Assembly (NCBI GenBank): GCA_035260845.1
Contig: DATFUL010000008.1
Span: forward strand, 5,709-69,708
DNA from: Patescibacteria group bacterium
GTDB lineage: Bacteria; Patescibacteriota; Microgenomatia; UBA8517
Direction: 5' to 3'
Length of the DNA: 64,000 nt
Every line of letters starts with the position of its first letter. Position 1 is the first letter of the stretch. The translations under genes were made by a program, and so were the position numbers. Of this stretch, positions 13,218 through 26,773 are shown in pieces. The notes beneath the pieces are model-generated. The model saw only the letters and a list, made by a program, of their open reading frames with translations. It was not told the origin of the DNA and made no database searches.

Positions 13218-14468
13218 ATGACAGACGTGATCAGCCTCCCCAAAGGTACTGTAATTCCTAACCACATAGCCATGATTCTCGATGGCAACAGACGCTGGGC
13301 CAGAAGCCGTGGTCTTGCTCCTTGGAAAGGGCATTATTATGGCTATAAAGCTGTTAACGCCCTGGCGCACGCCACACGTAAATTAGGAATCCATACTTTT
13401 ACTGTTTGGGCTTTTTCTACCGAAAACTGGGAGAGGCCCCAAAAAGAAATTGACGAGATTATGAACATTTTTAGACAAGCCCTTAAAGAAACCGAAAAAG
13501 ACTTTCATAAAGAACATGTTGCTATGGTTCACTTAGGCCGTAAAGACAGATTACCTGCCGATATCCGTGCCGAAGTCATAAGGATTGAAAATGAAACTGC
13601 CAAATATTCAAAAGAGCACATTTTTAATATGGCGATAGACTACGGTGGCAGGGATGAAATTGTTAGGGCAGTTCAAAAAATAGTTAGTGAAGGCGTTCCG
13701 GCCGAGAAAATCACCGAAAAGAAATTTGCAGAATATTTGGACACTTATAATCAACCATACCCGGATCCGGACTTATTTATTCGCACAAGCGGGGAACAAA
13801 GAACTAGCGGACTTTTGCCCTGGCAAATGGCTTACACAGAATTTTATTTTGAACCAGAACACTTGCCGGACTTTTCTCCAACAAAGCTAAAAGAGGCAAT
13901 TTTGGACTATTCAAGGCGCAGGCGTAGGTTTGGCGGCAATGATGCAGTCGAGCATTTTGGATTTGATCCGCAAGTTTTGGCACACCTGGAACTTAAATGG
14001 TGGCGCTTGGGTAATATTCCGGAAGGAATGAAATTCCGCGAATATGCAATGAAGCATTTATCCGAACAATTTGGCCTTTCTAAAAGTTTAGCGGGGGAGG
14101 CAGCCCATTTACTTCTCGAAGCTATAAAGGAGGAAAACGACAACAAACTGGAAAAAGCTACCAATAAACTTAAAAAATTCTATACCTTAATTAAAAATGA
14201 AGTTAAATTGGCTTTTGAACCGGAGATTGTGGCCTCTTTGGAAGTTAGAATGCGCAACGAAAAAGGAGAATCAGAAGACACAACTCGCGAATATTTGGCG
14301 GAGGTTTATAGAATTAGTCTTTTCCAAGCCGCAAAAGCGGCCCACCTTAAAGTTTTGGCAGCAGTTGAAAGGAATCTTGCTCAAGCCGGAATGGGGGAAA
14401 ATCATTGGGCCAAGGCAGAAGACTACCTCACTAAATATTATATGGCGCTTAAGGAAAGGGTGGCCTAA
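13218..14468 (+). CDS. uppS: Undecaprenyl-diphosphate synthase (cis-prenyltransferase) with ~170-aa helical C-terminal extension
   Basis: PNHIAMILDGNRRWA, FSTENWERP and RTSGEQRTSG motifs in the first ~245 aa. The ORF then continues uninterrupted for ~170 aa with no UppS counterpart. Confidence 0.8.
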   Translation: MTDVISLPKGTVIPNHIAMILDGNRRWARSRGLAPWKGHYYGYKAVNALAHATRKLGIHTFTVWAFSTENWERPQKEIDEIMNIFRQALKETEKDFHKEHVAMVHLGRKDRLPADIRAEVIRIENETAKYSKEHIFNMAIDYGGRDEIVRAVQKIVSEGVPAEKITEKKFAEYLDTYNQPYPDPDLFIRTSGEQRTSGLLPWQMAYTEFYFEPEHLPDFSPTKLKEAILDYSRRRRRFGGNDAVEHFGFDPQVLAHLELKWWRLGNIPEGMKFREYAMKHLSEQFGLSKSLAGEAAHLLLEAIKEENDNKLEKATNKLKKFYTLIKNEVKLAFEPEIVASLEVRMRNEKGESEDTTREYLAEVYRISLFQAAKAAHLKVLAAVERNLAQAGMGENHWAKAEDYLTKYYMALKERVA

Positions 14469-14472
14469 TTTT

Positions 14473-15492
14473 ATGTCTGAACCCATTTCACGAAGAGATT
14501 TTCTAAAAATAGTTGGGGTTGGTTTGGGGGCCGGGGCTTTGATTGCTGCTAAAGTCGAAGCAAATATAAATCCACATTTTGCAAATGGCTTAAAAGTTGT
14601 TAAAGAACTAACTACCGCCGAGCTAAGTCGCGATCCCGAAAAAATATTAGAATCAAAAAAATTAGCAATGGTTTGGTTGTTTGCAGAAACTGCCACAAAA
14701 TACAGTAAAGAAATGGGCCTCGGAGGGGCTGGGTTAGGAATGGAGCACTTTTTATATGGTAATGGTCAACCTCTAGATATTACACCTTTGTTAGAAAAAG
14801 TAGTCAAAATAGAACCAGAAAGATTTGTTGGTAAGTTAGTAAATGCCGCCATTACTGATAAGGAAGATGATTACAAGCGTGTTTCACCCGAAAAGGATTA
14901 TCAATTTACAAATAGGGCACTTAAAGAACTTAAAAGTACAACTGGACTTAATACAGCTCTTGATGCTCGGGAGTGGGATATGGGGTGGGAAGAACAATTC
15001 AATGCGTTCGGTGGGGCAAGATACGTTCTTCATGCCCAAGAGGCGGATATTGTATCCCAAGATGGGTGGGGGGAGACGGTTATTCTAGAAAAAGGGATCG
15101 ATATCGCAGCTACAGACAGGTATTATTGGCAGTTAAACAATCCAGTATTTTTGCCTTCAGATGTTGGACAGGTTGCAGAAAAAGGGGCAGAAACGTTGTT
15201 TGATCAATTTTATAAATCTCATGACGTTGTTGAAAAAACACTTAGAGAATTGAAACTTCCAGAGGACTCAGTAATTAAGATTATGAATATATATTCAAGC
15301 GATCAAAGAGATGAATTTACATCTAATTTAGCACCAAGTGCATATAAATTAGCGGAAAAGATTGATCAGTCATTAATTGGGGCGCCAGATTTAGTTGAAA
15401 ATGACTTAAATTTATTAAAGAAAATTGGAGCAATGGAATACGATATGACTGGACACATAAATATTTCCAATAGACTTAAAGTTGTTGTATAG
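14473..15492 (+). CDS. Predicted Tat-exported protein of unknown function
   Basis: MSEPISRRDFLKIVGVGLGAGALIAAKVEA is a twin-arginine motif plus h-region. The ORF-track start at 14197 overlaps uppS and is rejected. Confidence 0.5.
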   Translation: MSEPISRRDFLKIVGVGLGAGALIAAKVEANINPHFANGLKVVKELTTAELSRDPEKILESKKLAMVWLFAETATKYSKEMGLGGAGLGMEHFLYGNGQPLDITPLLEKVVKIEPERFVGKLVNAAITDKEDDYKRVSPEKDYQFTNRALKELKSTTGLNTALDAREWDMGWEEQFNAFGGARYVLHAQEADIVSQDGWGETVILEKGIDIAATDRYYWQLNNPVFLPSDVGQVAEKGAETLFDQFYKSHDVVEKTLRELKLPEDSVIKIMNIYSSDQRDEFTSNLAPSAYKLAEKIDQSLIGAPDLVENDLNLLKKIGAMEYDMTGHINISNRLKVVV

Positions 15493-15516: not shown

Positions 15517-16977
15517 ATGCAGGCTTTCAAAAACAAAACCATTCTCCAAATCTTAGATAAATATAAAGATCTTTGGGCCATAGGCCATGTATCCGCAGTT
15601 TCCCATTGGGACTTGGAAACTTACATGCCACAAAAGGGAGCTGGAGCAAGAGGACAGGCACTTGGCCGGCTAGCAACTATCCGCCAAAGATTGTTCCTCG
15701 ACCCAGCCTTCACCAAATTGTTGGTTTCGGCGGGCAAGCAAAAGTTAAACGATCAGGAAAAAGCAGTTGTGAGAACACTTGTTAGGGCCTTAAAGTTTTA
15801 TGAGAAGCTGCCATCAAAATTTATAGAGGACTTTGAGATTTTAACCAATAAGGCTACAGTTGTTTGGCGTGAGGCTAAGGAAAAGAATAACTTTAAAATC
15901 TTTGAAAAAGACTTGGCCAAAATATTCGACATGAATAAGCAGGCGGCAGAGTACTTGGGTTACAAAGATTCGCCCTATGATGCACTTTTAGATCAATTTG
16001 AAGAAGACTTAACTAGTAAGGAAGTCGAATCATTCTTCAGTGAAATAAAACAACCACTTAAAGACCTGTTGGGGAAGATCAAGAACTCTAAAAATTATCA
16101 AAAAACACACTTCCTTGAAAAGGCAAAATATGATCGCTCAAAAATAGAAACTCTTAACACTAAGATACTAAAAACTCTCTGGAGCGATATGGAACGGTTT
16201 AGACTAGATATCTCAAGTCATCCTTTTACAACCTCCTTTTCTAATACGGACACCCGTATAACTACATGGTATCACAAGACCGATTTCGGTAGAAGTCTCC
16301 TCGCCACTGTTCATGAATTTGGCCACGCGCTTTATGACTTGCAATCTGCGGATGAACTCGAGATGACTCCTATTGAAGGAGGTTCGTCCCTCGTAATTCA
16401 TGAATCACAAAGCAGATTTTGGGAAAACTTTATAGGTAGAAGTGAACCTTTTATCCAATTTATATTAAAAGATGCAAGAGAAGCTGTTAAAACAAACATT
16501 TCAGCTTCCGATATTTATTCCTATTTTAATAAAGTTAGACCTGGACTTCTAAGAGTTGAGGCCGATGAAGTTACCTACCACTTCCACATAATGCTTAGGT
16601 ATGAGATCGAAAAAGGATTAATTGAAGGTAAACTCAAAGTCCGTGATTTACCCGAGATTTGGAATGCAAAAATGAAGGAATATTTAGGTGTTACCCCCAA
16701 AAAAGACTCAGATGGAGTTTTACAGGATATTCACTGGAGCGGGGGAATGGTGGGGTACTTTCCAACTTATTCACTCGGAACGTTCTTAGGAGCGCAGTGG
16801 GAGGAGAAGATGAATCTAGAATCTGGAATCAAGAATATAGGGAAGATAGAAAGCTGGCTCAAGGAACACATACATAAATATGGTTCAACTTACACAATGC
16901 TGGAGCTCCTCACGAAAAATAAAATGAAGTTTGATCCTAGTGTGAACTTAAATTATTTAAACAAGAAGTACTCTTAA
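15517..16977 (+). CDS. M32 carboxypeptidase (Taq-type metallocarboxypeptidase)
   Basis: HEFGHALYD (HExxH), HESQSRFWEN, LLRVEADEVTYHFHIMLRYEIE and DIHWSGG are M32 signatures. Confidence 0.8.
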   Translation: MQAFKNKTILQILDKYKDLWAIGHVSAVSHWDLETYMPQKGAGARGQALGRLATIRQRLFLDPAFTKLLVSAGKQKLNDQEKAVVRTLVRALKFYEKLPSKFIEDFEILTNKATVVWREAKEKNNFKIFEKDLAKIFDMNKQAAEYLGYKDSPYDALLDQFEEDLTSKEVESFFSEIKQPLKDLLGKIKNSKNYQKTHFLEKAKYDRSKIETLNTKILKTLWSDMERFRLDISSHPFTTSFSNTDTRITTWYHKTDFGRSLLATVHEFGHALYDLQSADELEMTPIEGGSSLVIHESQSRFWENFIGRSEPFIQFILKDAREAVKTNISASDIYSYFNKVRPGLLRVEADEVTYHFHIMLRYEIEKGLIEGKLKVRDLPEIWNAKMKEYLGVTPKKDSDGVLQDIHWSGGMVGYFPTYSLGTFLGAQWEEKMNLESGIKNIGKIESWLKEHIHKYGSTYTMLELLTKNKMKFDPSVNLNYLNKKYS

Positions 16978-17744: not shown

Positions 17745-19475
17745 TTAATCTAATTTGATCTGTAAATTCCAAAAATGAGAGTAGAGGCTGCCTTTTTTGG
17801 CTACTAGCTCTTTGTGAGTTCCAACTTCTTTTATCTTTCCATTCTCCATGACTACAATTTTATCCGCTCTCATAATTGTACTTAGCCTGTGAGCAATAAT
17901 AATGGTAGTTTTGCCGCGTCTAGCCTTCCAGAACGCATCCTGAATAAGTTTTTCCGATTCGGAGTCAAGATGGCTTGTAGCTTCATCAAAGACAACAATG
18001 TCAGGATCACTTAGAATCATGCGTGCAATTGCTAAGCGCTGCTTTTGGCCTCCGGAAAGTTTAACTCCACGCTCACCAACCTCTGTATTGTATTTAAGTT
18101 TTAAGCTATCAATAAAAGTGTCGATATTTGCAAGCTTTGAGGCCGATTTAATCTCGCTTAACTTTGGATTATCCTTTCCATAACCAATGTTGTAAGCAAT
18201 TGTGTTATTAAAAAGAATTGGTTCTTGGGGAACTACTCCCACAAAACTTCTTAAAGTGCTTTTGTTAAAATCTTTAATGTTAATGCCGTCGACCGTAATC
18301 TCACCCGAGTCCAAATCATAAAATCTCATGAGTAATTTAGCTAGGGTGGTCTTACCACTTCCGCTTCTTCCCACTAAGGCTATCGACTGGCCTTCCTCAA
18401 CTTTCAGGTTAATTCCATTAATAGCGTTTTTACTGCGGCCGTTATAAGTAAAATGAACGTTATTAAAATTAATAATACCGGAAACTCGGCTGATATTAAC
18501 TGGTTTTGAGGGATCTTTTACCTCAATTGCGTAGTCAAGTAAGCCAAAATATTTTTGCAGATCAGTGAATGATTTTGAGATATCTCTTAAACTCCAGACT
18601 AAATCCCAAAGTCTTGGAAACAGGATACTGATAAATGCAGTTACCAAGACGAAACTACCAACAGTCATGTGTAGATTTGTTGTGCTCACAATGCTAAAAA
18701 ATAAAATTGCAAAAATAGTAATATTAAAAAGAGTTCCAAGAGTAATATCTATATAGCGGTAGGTTAGGGTAAAGTCCCAAAGAGATTTGTACCAGGGTTT
18801 AAAAGCATTTGCTAGCCTGGTTTTTTCGAACTTTTCTCTGGCAAAAAGCTTAACTGTTTCATAATTAAGCATGTTGTCAGTAATAATGTCTGATACATTA
18901 TCTTCTTCTTCATTAAAAATTCTTCGTCTTTTGACATTTAAGGAGATAAAGAAATTGGCAATAATTAGAGTAAGTATGATTGAGACGCCTGCAATAATTG
19001 CAATTCGGAAGTCCAGGGCAATAAAGAAACAGAACATGACTATTATACTTACCGTAATGTCTAAGATCCTGTGGTGTAGGATAAAGAACAAGTCAAAGAA
19101 TGCATTGTCACCACGTTTAAAGGCAGATATTAAAGAGCCCGTGCTTTTATTAGAATGAAATACAAAATCAAGATCTTGTACCCAGGCAAAAATTTCTTGC
19201 CTAGCTAGTTTTGCGGCATCGAATGTTGCTTTATCACCAAACCAAAAGCTGATCTCAACAAAGAAAAGAGAAAGAACACTTGTTGCAATATAAAAAATAA
19301 GGATTCTAAGTAAGGTTGGGTAATTAAGTGTTGGAATTGCGTCCACAAAAAGTTTATAAAAATAGGGAATTAGGTTGTCTAGGGCCCCAGCCATAATCGC
19401 ACCAGCCACGAGCATTGTGTAGCCTAAACGGTTTGTTGTAGCAAACCTGAAAAATGTCTTTAAGATTTTATACAT
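17745..19475 (-). CDS. ABC exporter, fused permease/ATPase (MsbA-like)
   Basis: Six-TM N-terminal domain. Walker A GRSGSGKTT, signature LSGGQKQRLAIAR, Walker B IVVFDEATS. Confidence 0.85.
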   Translation of the reverse strand: MYKILKTFFRFATTNRLGYTMLVAGAIMAGALDNLIPYFYKLFVDAIPTLNYPTLLRILIFYIATSVLSLFFVEISFWFGDKATFDAAKLARQEIFAWVQDLDFVFHSNKSTGSLISAFKRGDNAFFDLFFILHHRILDITVSIIVMFCFFIALDFRIAIIAGVSIILTLIIANFFISLNVKRRRIFNEEEDNVSDIITDNMLNYETVKLFAREKFEKTRLANAFKPWYKSLWDFTLTYRYIDITLGTLFNITIFAILFFSIVSTTNLHMTVGSFVLVTAFISILFPRLWDLVWSLRDISKSFTDLQKYFGLLDYAIEVKDPSKPVNISRVSGIINFNNVHFTYNGRSKNAINGINLKVEEGQSIALVGRSGSGKTTLAKLLMRFYDLDSGEITVDGINIKDFNKSTLRSFVGVVPQEPILFNNTIAYNIGYGKDNPKLSEIKSASKLANIDTFIDSLKLKYNTEVGERGVKLSGGQKQRLAIARMILSDPDIVVFDEATSHLDSESEKLIQDAFWKARRGKTTIIIAHRLSTIMRADKIVVMENGKIKEVGTHKELVAKKGSLYSHFWNLQIKLD

Positions 19476-19668
19476 ATTTTTCGACGCAAAATTCGCCTCC
19501 TTCGATTCCGCTTCCTTAAGCGGTTTCTTATGAGGTAAAAGTACGGTGAGGCTTTATTATATAGTATATGACGCTCCTCAGGCAAGTCTTTAAGCGAAAA
19601 TAAAGTAAGTCTGGTATATGATTCTCCTCGGACAGGCCCTCGGCAGGCGCCTAAGCAAGAATCATATT

Positions 19669-19724
19669 CCAGGTTCAATTCATCCGTGAATAAATTCACG
19701 GTCTTCTTGAAAATCTGGTATAAT
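19669..19724 (+). promoter_or_regulatory. Second copy of the conserved promoter module (CCAGGTTCAATTCATC + hairpin CGTGAAT-aa-ATTCACG + TTCTTGAA + TGGTATAAT)
   Basis: Aligns with 8579-8634. The conserved block sits at the same distance (31-32 nt) from the extended -10. The hairpin differs in sequence but keeps its pairing. Confidence 0.45.
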
Positions 19725-19748
19725 ATCAGTACTTTCAAACAACTTTCC

Positions 19749-20645
19749 ATGCGGAAACTAATCTACCCTTTACTTTTAGTGCTTTTGAGCCTGGTCTTTG
19801 TGGCTCCAGGGCATGTTTTAGCTAAAACCACACCTAGCACAAGTCCATTGCCATCAGCCTCCGCAAGCGCCACAGTTGTAGCTACCGCAACACCAACAAC
19901 CGTGCCAGACATTACTCGAAAGAGTGAGGAAACTTTAGGCCCCTTGGAGACTCTAATGATGTCGCAACAATTGACCTCAGTCTGGCCATATAACCCCATT
20001 AAATATGCAATTAGAGGAGCAGTAGGTTCAGGAGTTCCGGTGAACACAATAGTACTCTTACTTCTTTTGCCAATAATGACTTTTGTTATTGCCTTTACCA
20101 GGAACGTCGTTGGTATCCGGGGATTTGGAATTTTTCTGCCAGCAGCCTTATCCGTGGTATTTGTAGCCACCGGGCCAATTGTTGGAATTGGACTCTTCCT
20201 TATAATCGTTGTTGTTTCGACCATCTTTAGGCTGATTCTTAGAACACTCAAGATTAAGCTTCAATATTTGCCAAGAATGGCACTTATTCTTTGGGGAGTT
20301 GTTCTTGGAGTCTTGGGAGCACTATTCTTGGCTCCTTACCTAAAGTTTTCGGCTCTTTCCAATGTTTCTATATTTGCAGTTTTAATTCTTATTCTTCTTT
20401 CGGAAGATTTTACCCGCGTCCAGCTTGGGAAAAGTGCTAAAACAGCCGTAAGTCTTACTTTTCAAACCCTTGTGCTTTCACTGATATCTTTCTTCTTTTT
20501 GACCCTAAAGCCTTTGCAGGAGTATGTGTTACTCAACCCCGAAATTTCTTTGATTGGTGTAGCTATTCTTGATCTTGCCCTTGGTAAATATACAGGACTC
20601 CGGGTTATGGAATTCTACAGGTTTAGGAAATTAATTCAGTCATAA
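19749..20645 (+). CDS. 7-TM membrane protein with signal peptide and Thr/Pro/Ala-rich extracytoplasmic N-terminus
   Basis: MRKLIYPLLLVLLSLVFVAPGHVLA signal. Low-complexity TPSTSPLPSASASATVVATATPTT stretch. Seven hydrophobic helices. First gene of the ATP-grasp island. Confidence 0.55.
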   Translation: MRKLIYPLLLVLLSLVFVAPGHVLAKTTPSTSPLPSASASATVVATATPTTVPDITRKSEETLGPLETLMMSQQLTSVWPYNPIKYAIRGAVGSGVPVNTIVLLLLLPIMTFVIAFTRNVVGIRGFGIFLPAALSVVFVATGPIVGIGLFLIIVVVSTIFRLILRTLKIKLQYLPRMALILWGVVLGVLGALFLAPYLKFSALSNVSIFAVLILILLSEDFTRVQLGKSAKTAVSLTFQTLVLSLISFFFLTLKPLQEYVLLNPEISLIGVAILDLALGKYTGLRVMEFYRFRKLIQS

Positions 20646-20651
20646 TTTACA

Positions 20652-21968
20652 ATGAAGATATCTTCAATTTTAGGCTTAAATGCAAGAAGTCAGTTATTTG
20701 CTTACCGCTATAATAGTCGGCGTGGTAAAAACATTGCTGACAGTAAGTTGCAAACCGCCGGGGTCCTAAAGCGCGCTGGTGTACTTCACCCAAAAATATA
20801 TAAGATTCTTAGGGACCCAACTGGAATTACAACTTTTGACTGGAATAGTTTACCCGATAGATTTGCACTTAAACCCAGCCGGGGATTAGGTGGAGAAGGC
20901 ATTATTGTTGTTAAAAAGAAGCTTAAAGATGGAGGATGGCTAACAACTCAAAAAGAAAAAGTCACTATTAGCGATCTCAAACTTCATTCACTAGATATTT
21001 TGGAAGGCGCTTATTCAATGGGCAACGTACCTGATGTAGCATTTGTGCAGGAGTATGTGGGTAGGCATCCGGTTTTTAGGCGCTACGCTTACCGCGGAAC
21101 TCCCGATATCCGCATTATTATTTTTAATAAAGTTCCTGTTATGGCCATGCTTCGCTTGCCAACAAAAGAGTCCGGTGGCCGTGCCAATTTGCATCAAGGA
21201 GCGGTTGGAGTTGGGGTTGATATTGCAACAGGAATCACAACTAAGGCTATATGGCATGGGAATCAAATTGTATTCAAACCCGGTACAAATAGAAAACTTA
21301 GAGGAATAAAAATACCCAATTGGAATCAGATTCTTGAAACTGCAGTGAATACTCAAATAGCCTCGCACTTAGGCTATATAGGCGTCGACATTGTTCTACA
21401 TCCAGATAAAGGGCCAATGGTTCTTGAAATGAATGCTCAGCCCGGGCTTCAGATTCAACTCGCTAATATGGAGGGCTTAAGGCGTAGACTTGAACGTATT
21501 GATGACCTTGAAGTACGTGACGCTGAACATGGAGTTAAGATTGCTAAAGCCTTGTTTGCAGGCCGCTTCGCTGATCGCGCAGCCGCAATTGAAGGAATTA
21601 GAACAATCAAAGCAGTTGAGGAGGTTAAGGTTTTATCATCCGATTTAAAGCGCATCCCTGTTTTAGCCAAAATTGATACTGGTGCCTGGAGCAGTGCGAT
21701 TGATAAAAAATTTGCCAAGGAAATCGGAATCCTGGATAAAAGTAAGATACTTTGGTATAAACGTAAACTTAGTGCATTAGGTGAGGAAGAGCGTCCTGTT
21801 ATTCCGGTAACTTTTTGGATTGCGGGCCGAAAGATTAAAACTGACATGACGGTAGCCGATCGCAAACTTCTTAGATACCAAATACTTATTGGCCGCGAAG
21901 ATTTGCAGGGGTTCTTGGTAAGCCCTGAGATAGATATGGAAAATTTAAGGGAGGCTAAGTGGAAGTAA
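20652..21968 (+). CDS. ATP-grasp amide ligase (RimK/alpha-L-glutamate-ligase-related) fused to C-terminal retropepsin-like aspartic peptidase domain
   Basis: N-terminal ~300 aa has ATP-grasp composition. The C-terminal ~120 aa contains VLAKIDTGAWSSAID (D-T-G-A aspartyl protease signature) and ILIGREDLQGF. Confidence 0.6.
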   Translation: MKISSILGLNARSQLFAYRYNSRRGKNIADSKLQTAGVLKRAGVLHPKIYKILRDPTGITTFDWNSLPDRFALKPSRGLGGEGIIVVKKKLKDGGWLTTQKEKVTISDLKLHSLDILEGAYSMGNVPDVAFVQEYVGRHPVFRRYAYRGTPDIRIIIFNKVPVMAMLRLPTKESGGRANLHQGAVGVGVDIATGITTKAIWHGNQIVFKPGTNRKLRGIKIPNWNQILETAVNTQIASHLGYIGVDIVLHPDKGPMVLEMNAQPGLQIQLANMEGLRRRLERIDDLEVRDAEHGVKIAKALFAGRFADRAAAIEGIRTIKAVEEVKVLSSDLKRIPVLAKIDTGAWSSAIDKKFAKEIGILDKSKILWYKRKLSALGEEERPVIPVTFWIAGRKIKTDMTVADRKLLRYQILIGREDLQGFLVSPEIDMENLREAKWK

Positions 21969-21972
21969 CCCC

Positions 21973-22866
21973 ATGAAGAAGATTTTGATTCTCACTAGTG
22001 GCAAGAAGAAAAAACTTACACCTTTTAAGTTGTCTCTCCGAAATCTCCAAATAGACTTAACTACGGCCTCATTCAACGATGTCTATTCTGATTCAGTAAG
22101 CGGCGACCTTTTACTTAAGAAAGGCCCAGCTATTTCTAGATTTGAAATAATTTACTTTAGATTAGTTGGGAAGAGCCTGGAAACTGCCTTACTCGTTGCT
22201 GCTTATGCCAAGAAAAATGGAATACAAATTGTAGACAAAATATACGAAAATGCCCAAGTTCTGCCCATTACTCAAAGTAAGATTAAGGAAATGCAGGCTT
22301 TGAAAGATGCTAAAATCACAATCCCTAAAACTATTTTTGGATCTTTGGATCAAATTGCCCAAAAAGGTCCCACTGTTTTTAGGTTCCCCTTTGTAATTAA
22401 AAGTTCAACAGGGAGCCGCGGTCGTGAAGTATATAGCCCAAATAATACTACGGAACTTAAGTCACTCATTACAGTTCTTTCCAAAGAAGAAAAATTAGGT
22501 AAACAATTTTTTGCCCAGGAGTTTGTACCAACTACAAAAAGAATTAGGGTACTTATTGTTGGCGGCCAAATAATTGGTTCCATTGTCCAACTCACTAAGT
22601 GGAGAAAAAGAGTAACAGGTTATATGCCACAAGAAGACGAAAAAAAGATAGACAAATTTACTCCAACTATTGAAATGCAAAACTTGGCGAAGTTGGCTGT
22701 TGTTGCCGTTGGAATTGACATTGCTGGAGTTGATATTTTAGTTAACGAACAGACTGGTCAGAGTCTTGTTATCGAAGTTAATGCAGCGCCCAGTTGGAAG
22801 CTTATTAAAAAATACTGCAAAGTAAATGTTGAATATGAAATCCTTAAATTTATTGCAAAGATCTAA
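21973..22866 (+). CDS. RimK-like ATP-grasp ligase
   Basis: FPFVIKSSTGSRGREVY, LIVGGQIIGS and AGVDILV match RimK/GshB-type ATP-grasp motifs. Confidence 0.65.
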   Translation: MKKILILTSGKKKKLTPFKLSLRNLQIDLTTASFNDVYSDSVSGDLLLKKGPAISRFEIIYFRLVGKSLETALLVAAYAKKNGIQIVDKIYENAQVLPITQSKIKEMQALKDAKITIPKTIFGSLDQIAQKGPTVFRFPFVIKSSTGSRGREVYSPNNTTELKSLITVLSKEEKLGKQFFAQEFVPTTKRIRVLIVGGQIIGSIVQLTKWRKRVTGYMPQEDEKKIDKFTPTIEMQNLAKLAVVAVGIDIAGVDILVNEQTGQSLVIEVNAAPSWKLIKKYCKVNVEYEILKFIAKI

Positions 22867-22870
22867 ATCA

Positions 22871-23485
22871 ATGAAAAGCAAAAGCGAAAGCTTATATCAA
22901 AATAAATTCCATAAGTTTGGGTTTAGTCCAAAATCTCTTTTATGGAAAACCCCTGGCGCTGCACACCAAAGGTTCAGGCAGTTTTGGGCCGAGATTGATT
23001 TTACAAATAAAAAAGTTCTTGATATCGGCTGCGGATTTGGGGAGTTTGGTAAATTTATTTTGAAAAGATATAAGGGAGTTACATATACCGGTATTGATAT
23101 AAACTCTGATTTTATTGAAACCGCAAAGAGGGAAGTTCCGGATGGGAAGTTTATTAATGCTGATTTTTTGAAAGAAAAAGTAAATGGTACTTATGACATC
23201 GTCATTGCTAGTGGGGTCTTAAATTCGAACATGGGAAGTCAAAACCTAACCTTTCGAAAAAAAGCAATCAAAAAAATGTTTTCACTAACTAAAAATATTT
23301 TGGCATTCAATATGTTAGGTGGTCACCCGACCCAAATAAGCAAAAAAGGGAGTAATGTTTGGTATTCAGATAGCCTTGTTATCCTTGATTTTTGTATGAG
23401 TTTAACCCGCCGTGTGGTTTTGCGTACCAATTACCACCCTAAAGACTTTACAATAATAATGTACAAAGTTAAGTCTTCAGGATAA
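22871..23485 (+). CDS. Class I SAM-dependent methyltransferase
   Basis: VLDIGCGFGEFGKFI (motif I) and TYTGIDIN. Start moved to the ATG at 22871, just after the upstream stop. Confidence 0.6.
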   Translation: MKSKSESLYQNKFHKFGFSPKSLLWKTPGAAHQRFRQFWAEIDFTNKKVLDIGCGFGEFGKFILKRYKGVTYTGIDINSDFIETAKREVPDGKFINADFLKEKVNGTYDIVIASGVLNSNMGSQNLTFRKKAIKKMFSLTKNILAFNMLGGHPTQISKKGSNVWYSDSLVILDFCMSLTRRVVLRTNYHPKDFTIIMYKVKSSG

Positions 23486-23491
23486 ATATAT

Positions 23492-24421
23492 ATGAAAAAA
23501 ATTTTAGTACTAGCCGCTAAAAGAAGTGAAAATAAAGAAAAGCTAATTGCTTTCCTCCAAAGATATTTTGATAAAAAAGCAGAAGTTGTTTTAGGTATTT
23601 TCTCTGATGTAATATTCCAAATTGAAGGCGGTAAAATCCTCGTCGAAATTGATGGCCGTAATATTAATGATTTTGATTTAGTCTATTTTAGAAACACCTC
23701 CGGTTTCCAAGCAATGGCTGCAACCCTTTCGATTTATTTGGAAAGCACAGGGGTTAAATTTTTTGATAAATCTCATATTAGCGGCAGTTTTATGGGCGAT
23801 AAATTTACATCCCTTATGCGTTTAGCTGTAAACGGTTTGCCAATTGTTCCATCTTTTCTTTGTTGGAAGGGAGCAATTAAAAAAACCAAAAAAAGAATTG
23901 CTAAGGAATTTGGGTTTCCCATTGTTGCTAAAGAAGTTACAACTCAAAGAATGCAAAGTGTTTTCTTACTTAAATCATTACGTGATTTTGACAAATTACC
24001 GGACAAAACCGGACATGGTAACAATGCACGTTACTTGTTCCAAAAATTTATAACCTTCGATAAAGAATTTAGGATTTTAGTATTGGGTGAGAAAATTGGA
24101 ATAATTCATACAAAAACAGTGAGGGATAATACCGGTTTCCAAGTTGGGTATAACGATATGACTGAATACCCCAAGTTTTTAAGACCGGAAGAAATATCTA
24201 GTGTTATTAAAGAGACAGCAGTTAAAGCTGCAAAAGTTCTTAAAATTCAAATTGCCGGAGTAGACATTTGTAGGGAAGAGGCAACTGGCAAGACTTTTGT
24301 CTTTGAAGTAAATCGTGGCCCGGGACTCGAATACGACACAGCCGTTTCACAGGAGATGCCAAAGATCGCAGAATTCTTTGCTTATGAGCTTGGTATTAAA
24401 TTGCCGAAAAATAGGAGTTAA
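23492..24421 (+). CDS. RimK-like ATP-grasp ligase (third in island)
   Basis: FGFPIVAKEVTTQRMQSVFLL, ILVLGEKIG and IAGVDICREEATGKTFVFEVN. Confidence 0.6.
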   Translation: MKKILVLAAKRSENKEKLIAFLQRYFDKKAEVVLGIFSDVIFQIEGGKILVEIDGRNINDFDLVYFRNTSGFQAMAATLSIYLESTGVKFFDKSHISGSFMGDKFTSLMRLAVNGLPIVPSFLCWKGAIKKTKKRIAKEFGFPIVAKEVTTQRMQSVFLLKSLRDFDKLPDKTGHGNNARYLFQKFITFDKEFRILVLGEKIGIIHTKTVRDNTGFQVGYNDMTEYPKFLRPEEISSVIKETAVKAAKVLKIQIAGVDICREEATGKTFVFEVNRGPGLEYDTAVSQEMPKIAEFFAYELGIKLPKNRS

Positions 24422-24590
24422 ATAATATCATTGGATACTTTCATTACTCTCCAAAGTGTGAAAATATTAAGTATTTCACGAACCAAACAAAATACGAAGA
24501 TAATTTTTGATTCCACCCCAGACATGCTTATCTTTCGCCTTCAGGTACTATTCGTACACGGCTCAAGATGTGCTTATGTCGGGGCGCACA

Positions 24591-24622
24591 AAAAATCCCG
24601 CAATTTCTTACGGGATCATTTG
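24591..24622 (-). terminator. Rho-independent terminator of rplL (minus strand)
   Basis: On the minus strand: ATCCCG-(10 nt loop)-CGGGAT followed by TTTTTTGTG. Confidence 0.6.
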
Positions 24623-24680
24623 AAGTCACTTAAATATATTATTCAAACTTTGCGTTAGCAAAGCAGTGAACAAGCTGTGC

Positions 24681-25064
24681 TTATTTAAGTTCGACTGTTG
24701 CACCTGCAGCTTTAAGTTTGTCTGCTGCATTTTTAACCTCATCAGGTTTTGCATCTTTCAAAACTTCTGCTGGAACTGCTTCTGTCATTCCTTTTGCATC
24801 CATTAGAGTTAAATTTGGATTTATCTCTCTTAGAGCTTTGATGACATTAATTTTTTGGTCGCCTGCAGCTGTCATTACAACTGTTTGGTTTCCACCTGCG
24901 GCTTCCGCTGCTGGAGCTTCTCCTGCTGCGGCTGCTGGTGCGGCTGCTGCCATAGGCATAGCTGTAACACCAAGTTTATCTTGAAGTGCGGTAACAAGTT
25001 CTGATAACTCAAGAACTGTTAACTTTGAAACTTCTTCTACTAAATCATTTACTTTATTTGCCAT
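24681..25064 (-). CDS. rplL: 50S ribosomal protein L7/L12
   Basis: ELSELVTALQDKLGV, Ala-rich hinge and C-terminal KAAGATVELK. Confidence 0.9.
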   Translation of the reverse strand: MANKVNDLVEEVSKLTVLELSELVTALQDKLGVTAMPMAAAAPAAAAGEAPAAEAAGGNQTVVMTAAGDQKINVIKALREINPNLTLMDAKGMTEAVPAEVLKDAKPDEVKNAADKLKAAGATVELK

Positions 25065-25732: not shown

Positions 25733-25951
25733 CTAGTTTCCGCTTGGCTTTAATGTTCTTTCAAGATCAGTTCCACCCGTTGGAGTACCTGACTGCTTTT
25801 TCTTTTTTGCTTCCTCTTCCAGTTTTCTTTCTAAATCAACATTTCCAGTTGGGGTTCCACCGGGCTTTTTATTATCAATAACCCTTGTAAGATCCACCTT
25901 TCCCGTACCTGTACCCGTACTTACTTTGTTTTCGAATTCATTTTTATCCAT
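25733..25951 (-). CDS. Small repeat protein (72 aa) inserted between rplA and rplJ
   Basis: Three internal repeats: GTGTGKVDLTRVID, GTPTGNVDLERKLEE and GTPTGGTDLERTLK. Confidence 0.4.
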   Translation of the reverse strand: MDKNEFENKVSTGTGTGKVDLTRVIDNKKPGGTPTGNVDLERKLEEEAKKKKQSGTPTGGTDLERTLKPSGN

Positions 25952-25978: not shown

Positions 25979-26773
25979 TTAAGCAACTTGAATCTTGACT
26001 GAAGGGCTCATTGTGGATTTGATAAACACTCTAACTATTTGTTTTGCCCCTCCCAAGGCTTTAAGTACTGCTTCTGTATTTTCTATGATTTCTTCGTCTT
26101 TTTGGCTATTTTTACCAACTACGGTATGAATAAGTGGGGCTTCTTTTTCTGTTTTCAAAGTTACTGAACCTGCGCCATATGCCTTGGCTTTTTTAAGGTC
26201 GGCAACAAGTGTTCCATTTTTAGGATTTGGCATTAAGCCTTTTGGACCCAAAAGTCTGGCAAAAGGAACCAACTTTGGCATCATGTCTGCGGTTGATACT
26301 AAAATATCAAAGTCAACTTTACCTGCTTGAAGTTTTTTAACAGTATCTTCATCTGCAATTTCTACTTTCTTCTGTCTTCCTGCTTGGAAGGGAAGTGCTA
26401 CTTGGGTTACTGTGCCTGTCTTTTTAACAACTATATGGAGTTCCATTGTACCGTCGAATTTTGAATATGAAGCACTTTTAACCAATTTTACGGCTTCGCT
26501 CACTTTGTATGATTTTTCGCGGTCAAATTTAGCCTTGGCTTCTATATATTTTTTGCCACGAACCTTTTCAATTATCTTTTTATCTGTTGTTTTCTTGGCA
26601 CCCTCATCAATAATTGGAGCTTCTTCCGTTACGGCTGCATCAACAACTTTTACGCGTTGACCACCTTTTAAGCCTGCAACATGAACTTTTGACTCATCTG
26701 CTTTGTGAGCTTGATCCTGCTTTTTCTTGTTTTTGTTTTCTTCGCCTACCAAGGCTGTTTTCATTTTTCCCAT
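25979..26773 (-). CDS. rplA: 50S ribosomal protein L1 with Lys-rich N-terminal extension
   Basis: GKKYIEAKAKFD...LLGPKGLMPNPKNGT matches the L1 core. About 50 extra N-terminal residues. Confidence 0.85.
   Translation of the reverse strand: MGKMKTALVGEENKNKKKQDQAHKADESKVHVAGLKGGQRVKVVDAAVTEEAPIIDEGAKKTTDKKIIEKVRGKKYIEAKAKFDREKSYKVSEAVKLVKSASYSKFDGTMELHIVVKKTGTVTQVALPFQAGRQKKVEIADEDTVKKLQAGKVDFDILVSTADMMPKLVPFARLLGPKGLMPNPKNGTLVADLKKAKAYGAGSVTLKTEKEAPLIHTVVGKNSQKDEEIIENTEAVLKALGGAKQIVRVFIKSTMSPSVKIQVA

Follow-up and report, generated by a model that had tools for sequence, protein, structure and literature searches.

Two described systems couple an ATP-grasp ligase to a retropepsin-like peptidase, and both resemble parts of the five-gene operon examined here (genes g1 to g5; + strand, positions 19749-24421), which lies in a 64-kb window (the whole stretch of DNA that was analysed, 64,000 nucleotides of contig DATFUL010000008.1, assembly GCA_035260845.1) from a Patescibacteria group bacterium of the Microgenomatia. 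The first, RloABC of Pseudomonas aeruginosa, has been named and studied both genetically and structurally (Lormand et al., mBio 2025, PMC12239564). RloA, a secreted retropepsin, cuts runs of eight or more glutamate residues and binds polyglutamate (‘polyE’) through K46, R114 and R137 (the substitutions R114A and R137A abolish function); RloB is an inner-membrane protein that combines an inactive transglutaminase domain with seven transmembrane helices (7TM); and RloC is a cytoplasmic ATP-grasp enzyme (PMC12239564). A triple rloA deletion is lethal in hypo-osmotic medium and is suppressed by deletion of either rloB or rloC, and rlo mutants display cell-shape, beta-lactam and hypo-osmotic phenotypes that the authors tentatively link to peptidoglycan; 96% of RloB matches fall within the Proteobacteria (PMC12239564).

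In the second system, the cytoplasmic retropepsin RimB removes glutamate from polyglutamylated RpsF and stimulates the synthesis of poly-alpha-glutamate by RimK (Little et al., JBC 2025, PMC11957791). A natural RimBK hybrid, in which the protease is N-terminal, is proteolytically active (PMC11957791). Operons that combine ATP-grasp and peptidase genes were originally predicted from comparative genomics to add and remove peptide tags, as PMC3495828 summarises. An initial annotation of the window had placed the operon in the family of RimK-like ligase, retropepsin-like peptidase and 7TM protein and had described that family as uncharacterised; the assignment is right for g1 and g2 (on Pfam matches, fold and adjacency in 75 of 75 loci), and the description has been overtaken by the work on RloABC (PMC12239564) and by the biochemistry of RimB, RimK and RimBK (PMC11957791). 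Searches of the available literature found no description of a Patescibacterial variant, and nothing relevant linking RimK to Patescibacteria.

The operon looks like a merger of an Rlo-like module (a 7TM protein and an RloC-type ligase) with a Rim-like module (a RimB-like protease and RimK-like ligases). We give an even chance to the reading that it is a Patescibacterial (Woesebacteria-type), rearranged system of the Rlo/Rim kind, which would build and trim acidic, glutamate-type chains. A system of the Rlo/Rim type is already known, and no new principle is involved; what is new is a Patescibacterial variant that lacks the transglutaminase domain, carries its protease in the cytoplasm as part of a fusion and is accompanied by accessory ligases.

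A ligase and a retropepsin in a single chain

The five open reading frames (ORFs) are co-directional and tightly packed, as first annotated, with intergenic gaps of 6, 4, 4 and 6 nucleotides (nt; the third is counted from a g4 start at 22871). Their length at a regional G+C content of 38%, together with strong profile matches and hundreds of homologues, places these genes far beyond chance. The second of them, g2 (20652-21968, + strand, 438 amino acids (aa)), had been recognized from its motifs as an ATP-grasp ligase fused to an aspartyl-protease domain, and matches to Pfam PF14397 and PF05618 bear this out. The N-terminal domain (residues 1-300, 20652-21551) is an ATP-grasp domain of the RloC type (ATPgrasp_ST/TIGR02291), which matches PF14397 (ATPgrasp_ST) over residues 13-284 with an E value of 4e-66 and TIGR02291 (‘alpha-L-glutamate ligase-like’) with an E value of 8.9e-81, at 271 bits under the hypothetical-equivalog cutoff of 314; against TIGR00768 it scores 43 bits (cutoff 143). 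Its catalytic set (K74, R177, N179, D246, E259 and N261) is invariant or conserved among 82 homologues, and it keeps the GGRANLHQG loop that is common to RimK.

The C-terminal domain (residues 318-425, 21603-21926) is retropepsin-like by profile, fold and motif. It matches PF05618 (Zn_protease, now RimB-like) with an E value of 1.9e-6 and 28.3 bits (cutoff 27) and gives weak matches to NCBIfam RloA3 (1e-5) and RimB (1.8e-3), and also to RloA2 and RloA1. Because the RloA1-3 equivalogs are matched at 25 bits against a cutoff of 210, the domain is a relative and not an orthologue; the RimB equivalog gives 18 bits against a cutoff of 200, with a RimB-like fold and cytoplasmic location present. The aspartyl-protease signature KIDTGAWSSAID (residues 340-351, 21669-21704) contains the catalytic D342-T-G-A345 (21675-21686), and ILIGRED (residues 411-417, 21882-21902) contains G414-R-E-D417 (21891-21902). 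A motif of the G-R-D/N type is a hallmark of retropepsins, and all three features by which clan AA peptidases are recognized (the DTG loop, the GRD/N-type motif and the retropepsin beta-barrel fold) are found in this domain. Sequence matches in the Protein Data Bank (PDB) were RloA2 (9g59, E 0.0028) and RloA (9g58, E 0.018), in which AK(M/L)DTGA aligns with AKIDTGA of g2 and two Arg-containing strands align as well.

The full-length AlphaFold2 model of g2 (predicted local distance difference test (pLDDT) score 82.9) consists of an ATP-grasp body (residues 1-300, about 85-93), a low-confidence linker (305-316) and an all-beta domain (318-425). When the whole model was submitted to Foldseek, the best matches were ArgX (3vpb) and RimK (5zct/7qys), with E values of 1e-10, and LysX; since the top 50 were ATP-grasp enzymes only, the C-terminal domain was modelled separately from a diverse alignment (AlphaFold2, pLDDT 93.7). 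The lone domain matched Lpg0085/DUF785 (2pma, 1.8e-6), P. fluorescens RloA (9g58, 3e-6) and P. aeruginosa RloA2 (9g59, 4e-6), followed by Ddi1, Rickettsia APRc and the proteases of HIV-1, HTLV and foamy virus (SFV), with a probability of 1.00 to HIV-1, HTLV, SFV and Ddi1. The fold is that of a retropepsin.

Across 82 full-length fusions, D342, T343, G344, A345, R404 and G414 are present in every sequence, K340, R381, R415 and D417 are nearly invariant, and GRxD is found in at least 80. The catalytic Asp, on which the initial assignment hinged, is invariant in all 82 and equally in all 44 short homologues, where the other conserved positions are kept too. K340, R381 and R404 are likely equivalents of RloA K46, R114 and R137, and hence candidate polyE-binding residues; the equivalence was drawn from residue spacing, not from direct alignment to P. 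aeruginosa RloA, and the three residues align with the K-x-D and Arg positions of RloA2 and RloA in 9g59 and 9g58.

No transmembrane (TM)-like segment and no signal peptide were found in g2 (maximum 19-aa Kyte-Doolittle score 1.16), and from this lack of any hydrophobic segment the protein is predicted to be soluble and hence cytoplasmic. Both of its domains are basic (isoelectric point about 10).

A membrane partner without a transglutaminase domain

The gene directly upstream, g1 (19749-20645, + strand, 298 aa), encodes an RloB-like membrane protein. The signal peptide, TP-rich stalk and seven TM helices first proposed for it agree with hydropathy and with a match to Pfam 7TM_transglut (PF14402, E 3.9e-23), which covers residues 103-295 and only profile positions 58-247, the 7TM half. 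NCBIfam RloB is likewise matched only at C-terminal positions 312-507 of 508 (196 positions), at 59 bits against a cutoff of 900; the transglutaminase domain that marks membership of the RloB type is absent from g1. Neither this loss nor the cytoplasmic side of the g2 protease, opposite to that of secreted RloA, was noticed in the initial annotation.

The protein instead begins with a signal peptide (residues 1-25, 19749-19823, by hydropathy), a low-complexity linker rich in T, P, S and A (residues 26-55, 19824-19913) and a conserved juxtamembrane segment (residues 56-98, 19914-20042), followed by seven TM helices (residues ~99-280, 20043-20588) and a cytoplasmic C-terminal motif, GLRxxExxRFR (residues 283-293, 20595-20627). 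In an alignment of 79 sequences of the g1 family the linker varies, while the juxtamembrane segment (DITQKSxExLGPLExLL...NPIKYAIR), the charged intramembrane residues R118, E219 and E265 and the C-terminal GLRxxExxRFR are conserved.

Conservation of the core and variation of its accessories

The g2-type fusion is widespread in Patescibacteria and was confirmed in at least 576 stretches in species-representative genomes. The counts of loci given in this section refer to the best 80 of these (48-90% identity), which come from Woesebacteria, Blackburnbacteria, Collierbacteria and other Microgenomates. The best 120 database matches to g2 are all 420-450 aa long, at least 70% identical and from Patescibacteria/Woesebacteria; one entry, identical at 100%, is annotated only as a ‘sugar-transfer associated ATP-grasp domain-containing protein’.

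A g1-like gene stands directly 5' of the fusion in all 75 loci with enough upstream DNA, and at least one further ATP-grasp domain lies directly 3' on the same strand in 69 of 76 (none in 7 loci, one in 34, two in 31 and three in 4). The pair of g1 and g2 is therefore an invariant core, after which accessory amidoligases usually come in a set that varies, and the description of the locus as one expanded with extra ATP-grasp ligases was a fair one. Conservation of all five genes as a unit, the expectation that accompanied it, applies to g1 with g2 and to the presence of an additional ATP-grasp domain; it does not extend to the methyltransferase (14 of 76 loci, nearly all close relatives) or to the ligases, which vary from 0 to 3 in number and also in type.

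In the window the accessory genes are three. The first, g3 (21973-22866, + strand, 297 aa), is a RimK-family ATP-grasp ligase that matches Pfam RimK (PF08443) over its full length (E 2.3e-21), scores 103 bits against TIGR00768 (cutoff 143), 83 bits against MptN and 80 bits against LysX in NCBIfam, and finds RimK (7qys and 5zct, ~2e-7) as its best PDB matches. A second RimK-family ligase, g5 (23492-24421, + strand, 309 aa), is a paralogue of g3 (27% identity, E 1e-17) that matches Pfam RimK with an E value of 9.4e-13, TIGR00768 with 76 bits (cutoff 143), and biotin carboxylase (4e-8) and RimK (1e-5) in the PDB. The best NCBIfam matches of both are RimK, MptN, CofF and LysX, enzymes that characteristically add glutamate or glutamate-like residues to carboxylates; none of g2, g3 and g5 is RimK in the strict sense (PRK10446, 21-43 bits, cutoff 331).

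Between the two ligases lies g4 (22871-23485, + strand, 204 aa), a patchily distributed class I methyltransferase dependent on S-adenosylmethionine (SAM). It matches Methyltransf_31, Methyltransf_12 and Methyltransf_25 (~1e-11 each) and carries the motif I VLDIGCGFG expected of Rossmann-type class I SAM enzymes; its nearest solved relatives are generic (MM_2633 8e-8, LahSB 7e-6, BamL 9e-5 and Tam 8.5e-4). An alternative ATG at 22826 would make it overlap g3, and the start at 22871 is preferred because homologues of g4 are 202-207 aa long. As judged from sequence, catalytic motifs are intact in all four enzymes, g2 to g5.

In other loci the accessory genes encode RimK-like proteins of ~300 aa, a fused double RimK (613 aa), a GSH-S/YheCD-like ATP-grasp of 312 aa, ATP-grasp_3 proteins of 480 and 790 aa, DUF3541 and several proteins that could not be annotated. 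At loci with less than 60% identity and no adjacent rplL, which include Collierbacteria and lineages at 48-50%, a downstream ligase is kept in 26 of 32, and so the accessory ligases appear to travel with g1 and g2 and not with the ribosomal protein operon that lies next to them in the window.

Four accessory ORFs downstream of the fusion in related loci (L041 5362-7734, L021 12698-13633, L035 5540-6241 and L026 12208-14175) are, wholly or in part, without a match in Pfam or the PDB. Sequences of this kind are a 655-aa protein, a ~200-aa protein that precedes or follows the methyltransferase in 6 loci, and the last ~300 aa of ATP-grasp_3 proteins ~790 aa long, a region that in some cases forms a gene of its own. 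A resemblance of the C-terminal ~300 aa to FemAB/GNAT-like proteins, proposed by eye, found no support in Pfam and PDB searches. Many related contigs (L003, L007 and L009 among them) have a Woesebacteria-like gene order and encode proteins of 50-73% identity, yet are labelled ‘uncultured Gammaproteobacteria/Pseudomonadales’, and single contigs (L012, L052 and L070) are labelled Woesearchaeota, Bathyarchaeia or Spirochaetia; probably the labels are placeholders or the contigs were mis-binned.

Other fusions of the same protease

The protease domain, used by itself as the query of an exhaustive search, matched 517 cluster representatives (E <= 1e-3), in which it occurs as a stand-alone protease, in g2-type fusions with ATPgrasp_ST, and in proteins of 330-390 aa in which a TM anchor precedes the protease and 7TM_transglut follows it. 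P0127 (487 aa; L082 6001-7464) has a DTG domain and a DSG domain before the 7TM region, P0234 (657 aa) joins TM anchor, protease, 7TM and ATPgrasp_ST in one chain, and P0227 (688 aa) joins ATPgrasp_ST and protease to a YdjC-like carbohydrate deacetylase. In their genomic context, protease::7TM genes are followed by an unfused ATPgrasp_ST gene of 287-288 aa. Homology runs through all three components: the unfused ligase is 32% identical to that of g2 (E 1e-41), the 7TM part is 27% identical to g1 (E 5e-10), and the proteases match the g2 domain with E values of 1e-12 to 1e-24.

That natural fusions join the protease, the 7TM protein and the ligase argues that the three act together; and since the ligase follows GLRxxExxRFR in the triple fusion, this motif and the ligase can be placed on the cytoplasmic face. 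Members of one protease subfamily are thus extracytoplasmic and tethered to the 7TM domain in some lineages and cytoplasmic in g2. A profile (HMM) census of 163 loci plus the window, drawn from an independent metagenome sample, found RimK-like genes downstream in 94 of 118 loci with the cytoplasmic fusion, in 6 of 8 with a stand-alone protease and in 0 of 6 informative loci with the protease outside, a contrast that is suggestive only, because the loci are phylogenetically non-independent.

The same census gave an apparent ‘ATPgrasp_ST-RP-RP’ architecture, which was rejected as a tandem protease; each protein has one DTG, and a longer insert had been split by the HMM. A true tandem retropepsin is P0122 (258 aa), with two DTGA domains in one soluble chain. 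P0122 and P0127 are single-chain pseudo-dimers, reminiscent of the route proposed to lead from retropepsins to two-lobed pepsins. In P0200 (539 aa) the protease domain stands at the C-terminus of a class I lysyl-tRNA synthetase, an arrangement that could be an artefact of gene calling.

Comparison with known systems

The likeness to RloABC lies in the use of the same three families (the PF05618 peptidase, 7TM_transglut and ATPgrasp_ST/TIGR02291) in adjacent, co-directional genes, in the retention by g2 of the DTG motif and of basic residues aligned to the polyE-binding positions of RloA, and in an RloC-type ligase (g2) encoded beside the membrane protein. There are also differences. RloA is separate and secreted, whereas the g2 peptidase is the C-terminal domain of a cytoplasmic ligase; RloB has a periplasmic inactive transglutaminase domain, where g1 has a T/P-rich linker and a short conserved segment; and rloABC has neither accessory RimK-like ligases nor a methyltransferase, and the host here belongs to the Patescibacteria, which are uncultivated.

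With RimB-RimK and RimBK the locus shares a cytoplasmic retropepsin-like domain (in g2 a predicted endopeptidase) that is physically coupled to an ATP-grasp ligase (in Rim, one that acts with alpha-glutamate), by natural fusion in RimBK as in g2, and a gene order in which RimK-family genes come immediately after the sequence that codes for the protease, like rimK after rimB. The order of domains differs, since the protease of RimBK is N-terminal to a true RimK and that of g2 is C-terminal to an ATPgrasp_ST ligase; moreover, Rim has no 7TM partner, and the RimK-like proteins of this locus are encoded by separate genes and score under the RimK-family cutoffs. The alternative fusions of the triad differ again, in that their protease is extracytoplasmic and tethered to the 7TM domain, their ligase is unfused or at the cytoplasmic C-terminus, and none of six informative loci has RimK-like genes.

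A more distant analogy is offered by the PgsBCA/CapD system for poly-gamma-glutamate, which likewise combines a cytoplasmic amide ligase, one or more membrane components and a depolymerase for an anionic amino-acid polymer at the envelope. It draws on unrelated protein families, with a PgsB of the Mur-ligase type and a gamma-glutamyl transferase; its linkage is gamma and not alpha, and it has no homology to the operon.

A proposed role and its alternatives

If the operon is a rearranged Rlo/Rim-type system, the ligase domain of g2 would dock on the cytoplasmic face of g1, by way of the GLRxxExxRFR motif that stands just before the ligase in the triple fusion, and the ligases, using ATP, would make alpha-linked, acidic, glutamate-type chains, either free or on an acceptor. 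The retropepsin domain, as a homodimer, would cut these chains to size and might stimulate the ligases as RimB does RimK; g1 would export, anchor or sense the product, and the g4 methyltransferase would supply an optional tailoring step. The stepwise assembly of a short modified peptide, suggested in the initial annotation, is a plausible proposal. We lean weakly towards a peptide that is free or exported and away from a tag on a protein, because the accessory set varies as in a small biosynthetic cluster, and because no acceptor gene is conserved and no ORF in the window has an acidic tail.

Several points weigh against a role of this kind. No ORF in the window and no product of the operon has an acidic tail or a run of poly-E/D, and the window yielded no acceptor or substrate. 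The amino-acid specificity of the three ligases is predicted only; g3 and g5 score under the RimK-family cutoff and, by eye, lack the RxNxHxGG loop common to g2 and RimK; and the RimBK hybrid of D. psychrophila did not glutamylate RpsF (PMC11957791). The g2 protease, at ~108 aa, is shorter than RloA (128-141 residues in the solved chains), and its flap and specificity may therefore differ. The basic isoelectric points of the g2 domains may reflect only the composition of an AT-rich genome. The subfamily's protease is extracytoplasmic in other fusions and in Pseudomonas, so that a ‘trimming’ role in the cytoplasm is not simply transferable. A neighbour-joining tree of protease domains gave no resolution between a RimB-like and an RloA-like/7TM-tethered ancestor of the fused domain. 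Finally, the census contrast is suggestive, with loci that are not phylogenetically independent and only six informative ones that have the protease outside.

A more specific version of the Rlo/Rim reading, which we consider improbable as it stands but worth stating, is that Rim and Rlo have been merged on one molecule: the RimK-like enzymes would polymerise free, alpha-linked chains of the glutamate type, the retropepsin would size them, and the RloC-type ligase and the 7TM protein would hand them to or across the membrane. If this were true, the product would be an anionic envelope or osmoprotective peptide, optionally methyl-capped; the physiological substrate of Rlo in Pseudomonas and Vibrio would be named; and a ribosome-independent peptide pathway would exist in minimal genomes. 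In Pseudomonas, Rlo has an influence on osmotic tolerance, on sensitivity to antibiotics, on biofilm and on cell shape, and the pattern of fusions and topologies offers clues to its substrate. The fusions indicate that protease, 7TM protein and ligase form one physical unit; the transglutaminase-like domain is dispensable; a protease that can act in the cytoplasm or beyond the membrane speaks for a product that is synthesised in the cell and also occurs outside it; and the company that the cytoplasmic protease keeps with RimK-type ligases in the operon links Rlo to Rim biochemistry. The g2 protein itself is a compact, soluble ligase-protease, and for genomes of ~1 Mb an operon with three ligases is costly.

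The first alternative to the building and trimming of such chains is reversible protein tagging, in which the ligases would add a tail (such as polyglutamate) to the cytoplasmic loops or tail of the 7TM protein, or to a ribosomal or other protein, the fused protease would remove it, and the 7TM protein would act as a sensor coupling outside conditions to the state of tagging. Tagging is what RimK is established to do, as the C-terminal polyglutamylation of RpsF that RimB reverses, and the addition and removal of tags was also the original comparative-genomics prediction, as summarised in a later paper (PMC3495828); the g2 protease is cytoplasmic like RimB, and the C-terminal motif on the cytoplasmic side of the 7TM protein is invariant. 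On the other side, the operon has no conserved acceptor gene, and acidic C-termini are lacking among its products and the ORFs of the window; the number and family of the accessory ligases vary widely among close relatives, which fits a variable small product better; and rplL-rplJ, a convergent neighbour of the operon, is no longer adjacent in more distant lineages where the ligases persist. We regard tagging as unlikely, though it is the likeliest of the alternatives.

A lesser candidate is the amidation of an envelope component or glycan: the ligases would add amino acids to a lipid- or sugar-linked precursor (for instance of peptidoglycan or of a surface polysaccharide), with the 7TM protein as membrane scaffold or flippase-like partner and the protease as an editor of the peptide moiety. 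Pfam's name for PF14397, ‘sugar-transfer associated’, the fusion of ATPgrasp_ST and protease to a YdjC-like deacetylase in P0227, and the shape, beta-lactam and hypo-osmotic phenotypes of Pseudomonas rlo mutants, tentatively linked by the authors to peptidoglycan (PMC12239564), all point in this direction. The YdjC fusion is a single case, however, the conserved protease residues point to acidic peptides, and no glycosyltransferase, Mur or polysaccharide gene was found within or beside the operon, whether in the window or at the 80 genome loci examined, which leaves this explanation with a small share of the probability.

It is very unlikely that the operon consists of two unrelated units, namely an Rlo-like g1 and g2 beside an independent g3-g5 module (for MptN/CofF-like glutamylation of a cofactor or metabolite, or for S6 modification) that owes its position only to local synteny beside the ribosomal protein operon. 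Such independence would account for the 7 of 76 loci in which g1 and g2 stand alone, for the consistent absence of RimK-like genes from the two-gene form with the protease outside (0 of 6), for the patchiness of the methyltransferase and for matches of g3 and g5 to MptN, CofF and LysX that are about as good as those to RimK. It does not sit well with gaps of 4-6 nt, with the finding of no + strand terminator-like site between g2 and g5, or with the ATP-grasp gene directly 3' of the fusion in 69 of 76 loci, including 26 of 32 at less than 60% identity without rplL nearby, a pattern that recurs in the independent metagenome sample.

That the retropepsin-like domain is non-proteolytic, and serves only to dimerise or regulate the ligase, is highly improbable, for although RimB has a second, non-proteolytic role in stimulating RimK (PMC11957791) and a fused copy of an obligate dimer, as retropepsins are, would dimerise the ligase, the (near) invariance of DTGA, GRxD and the basic groove residues in 82 fusions and 44 short homologues is not expected of a purely structural domain, and the RimBK hybrid has a RimB domain that works as a protease (PMC11957791).

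Neighbouring genes and other features of the window

A promoter-like site (19695-19724, + strand; TTCACG, an 18-nt spacer and a TG-extended TATAAT) lies just 5' of the g1 ATG at 19749; it is a 10/12 match to the consensus and no more, and such sites are, in total, no more numerous in the region than expected from shuffled sequence. An Rfam scan of 19300-24800 (E <= 0.1) matched no family. On the 5' side the operon is flanked by an M32 carboxypeptidase, a MerR/HTH_17 protein and a divergent ATP-binding cassette (ABC) exporter, and on the 3' side by a convergent rplL-rplJ...rplA-rplK-nusG-secE cluster. A tblastn search of the 64-kb window with E. coli S6 found no rpsF.

The ABC exporter half-transporter (17745-19475, - strand) is also found upstream of g1 in about 12 of the closest relatives, mostly divergent and nearby, and the M32 (Taq-type) carboxypeptidase (15517-16977, + strand) is also upstream in L001 and L005, the two closest relatives with enough sequence. 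Both were considered as parts of the system and rejected, since their synteny is confined to the closest relatives and they are divergent or separated from the operon.

Three other features were observed. Between rplJ and rplA, a 72-aa ORF (25733-25951, - strand) contains three repeats of the ‘G(T)PTGxVDLER’ type; neither Pfam nor a tblastn search of L001-L080, which include the closest relative, L001, gave a match to it. The rplA ORF (25979-26773, - strand), read from its first ATG, encodes 264 aa with a Lys/Glu-rich N-terminal extension of several tens of residues relative to a typical L1. Further upstream, two long + strand ORFs (13218-14468 and 14197-15492) overlap by ~270 nt in different frames; the second is without a Pfam match, and a twin-arginine-like signal (SRRDFLKIVGVGLGAGALIAAKV) follows its internal Met near 14461.

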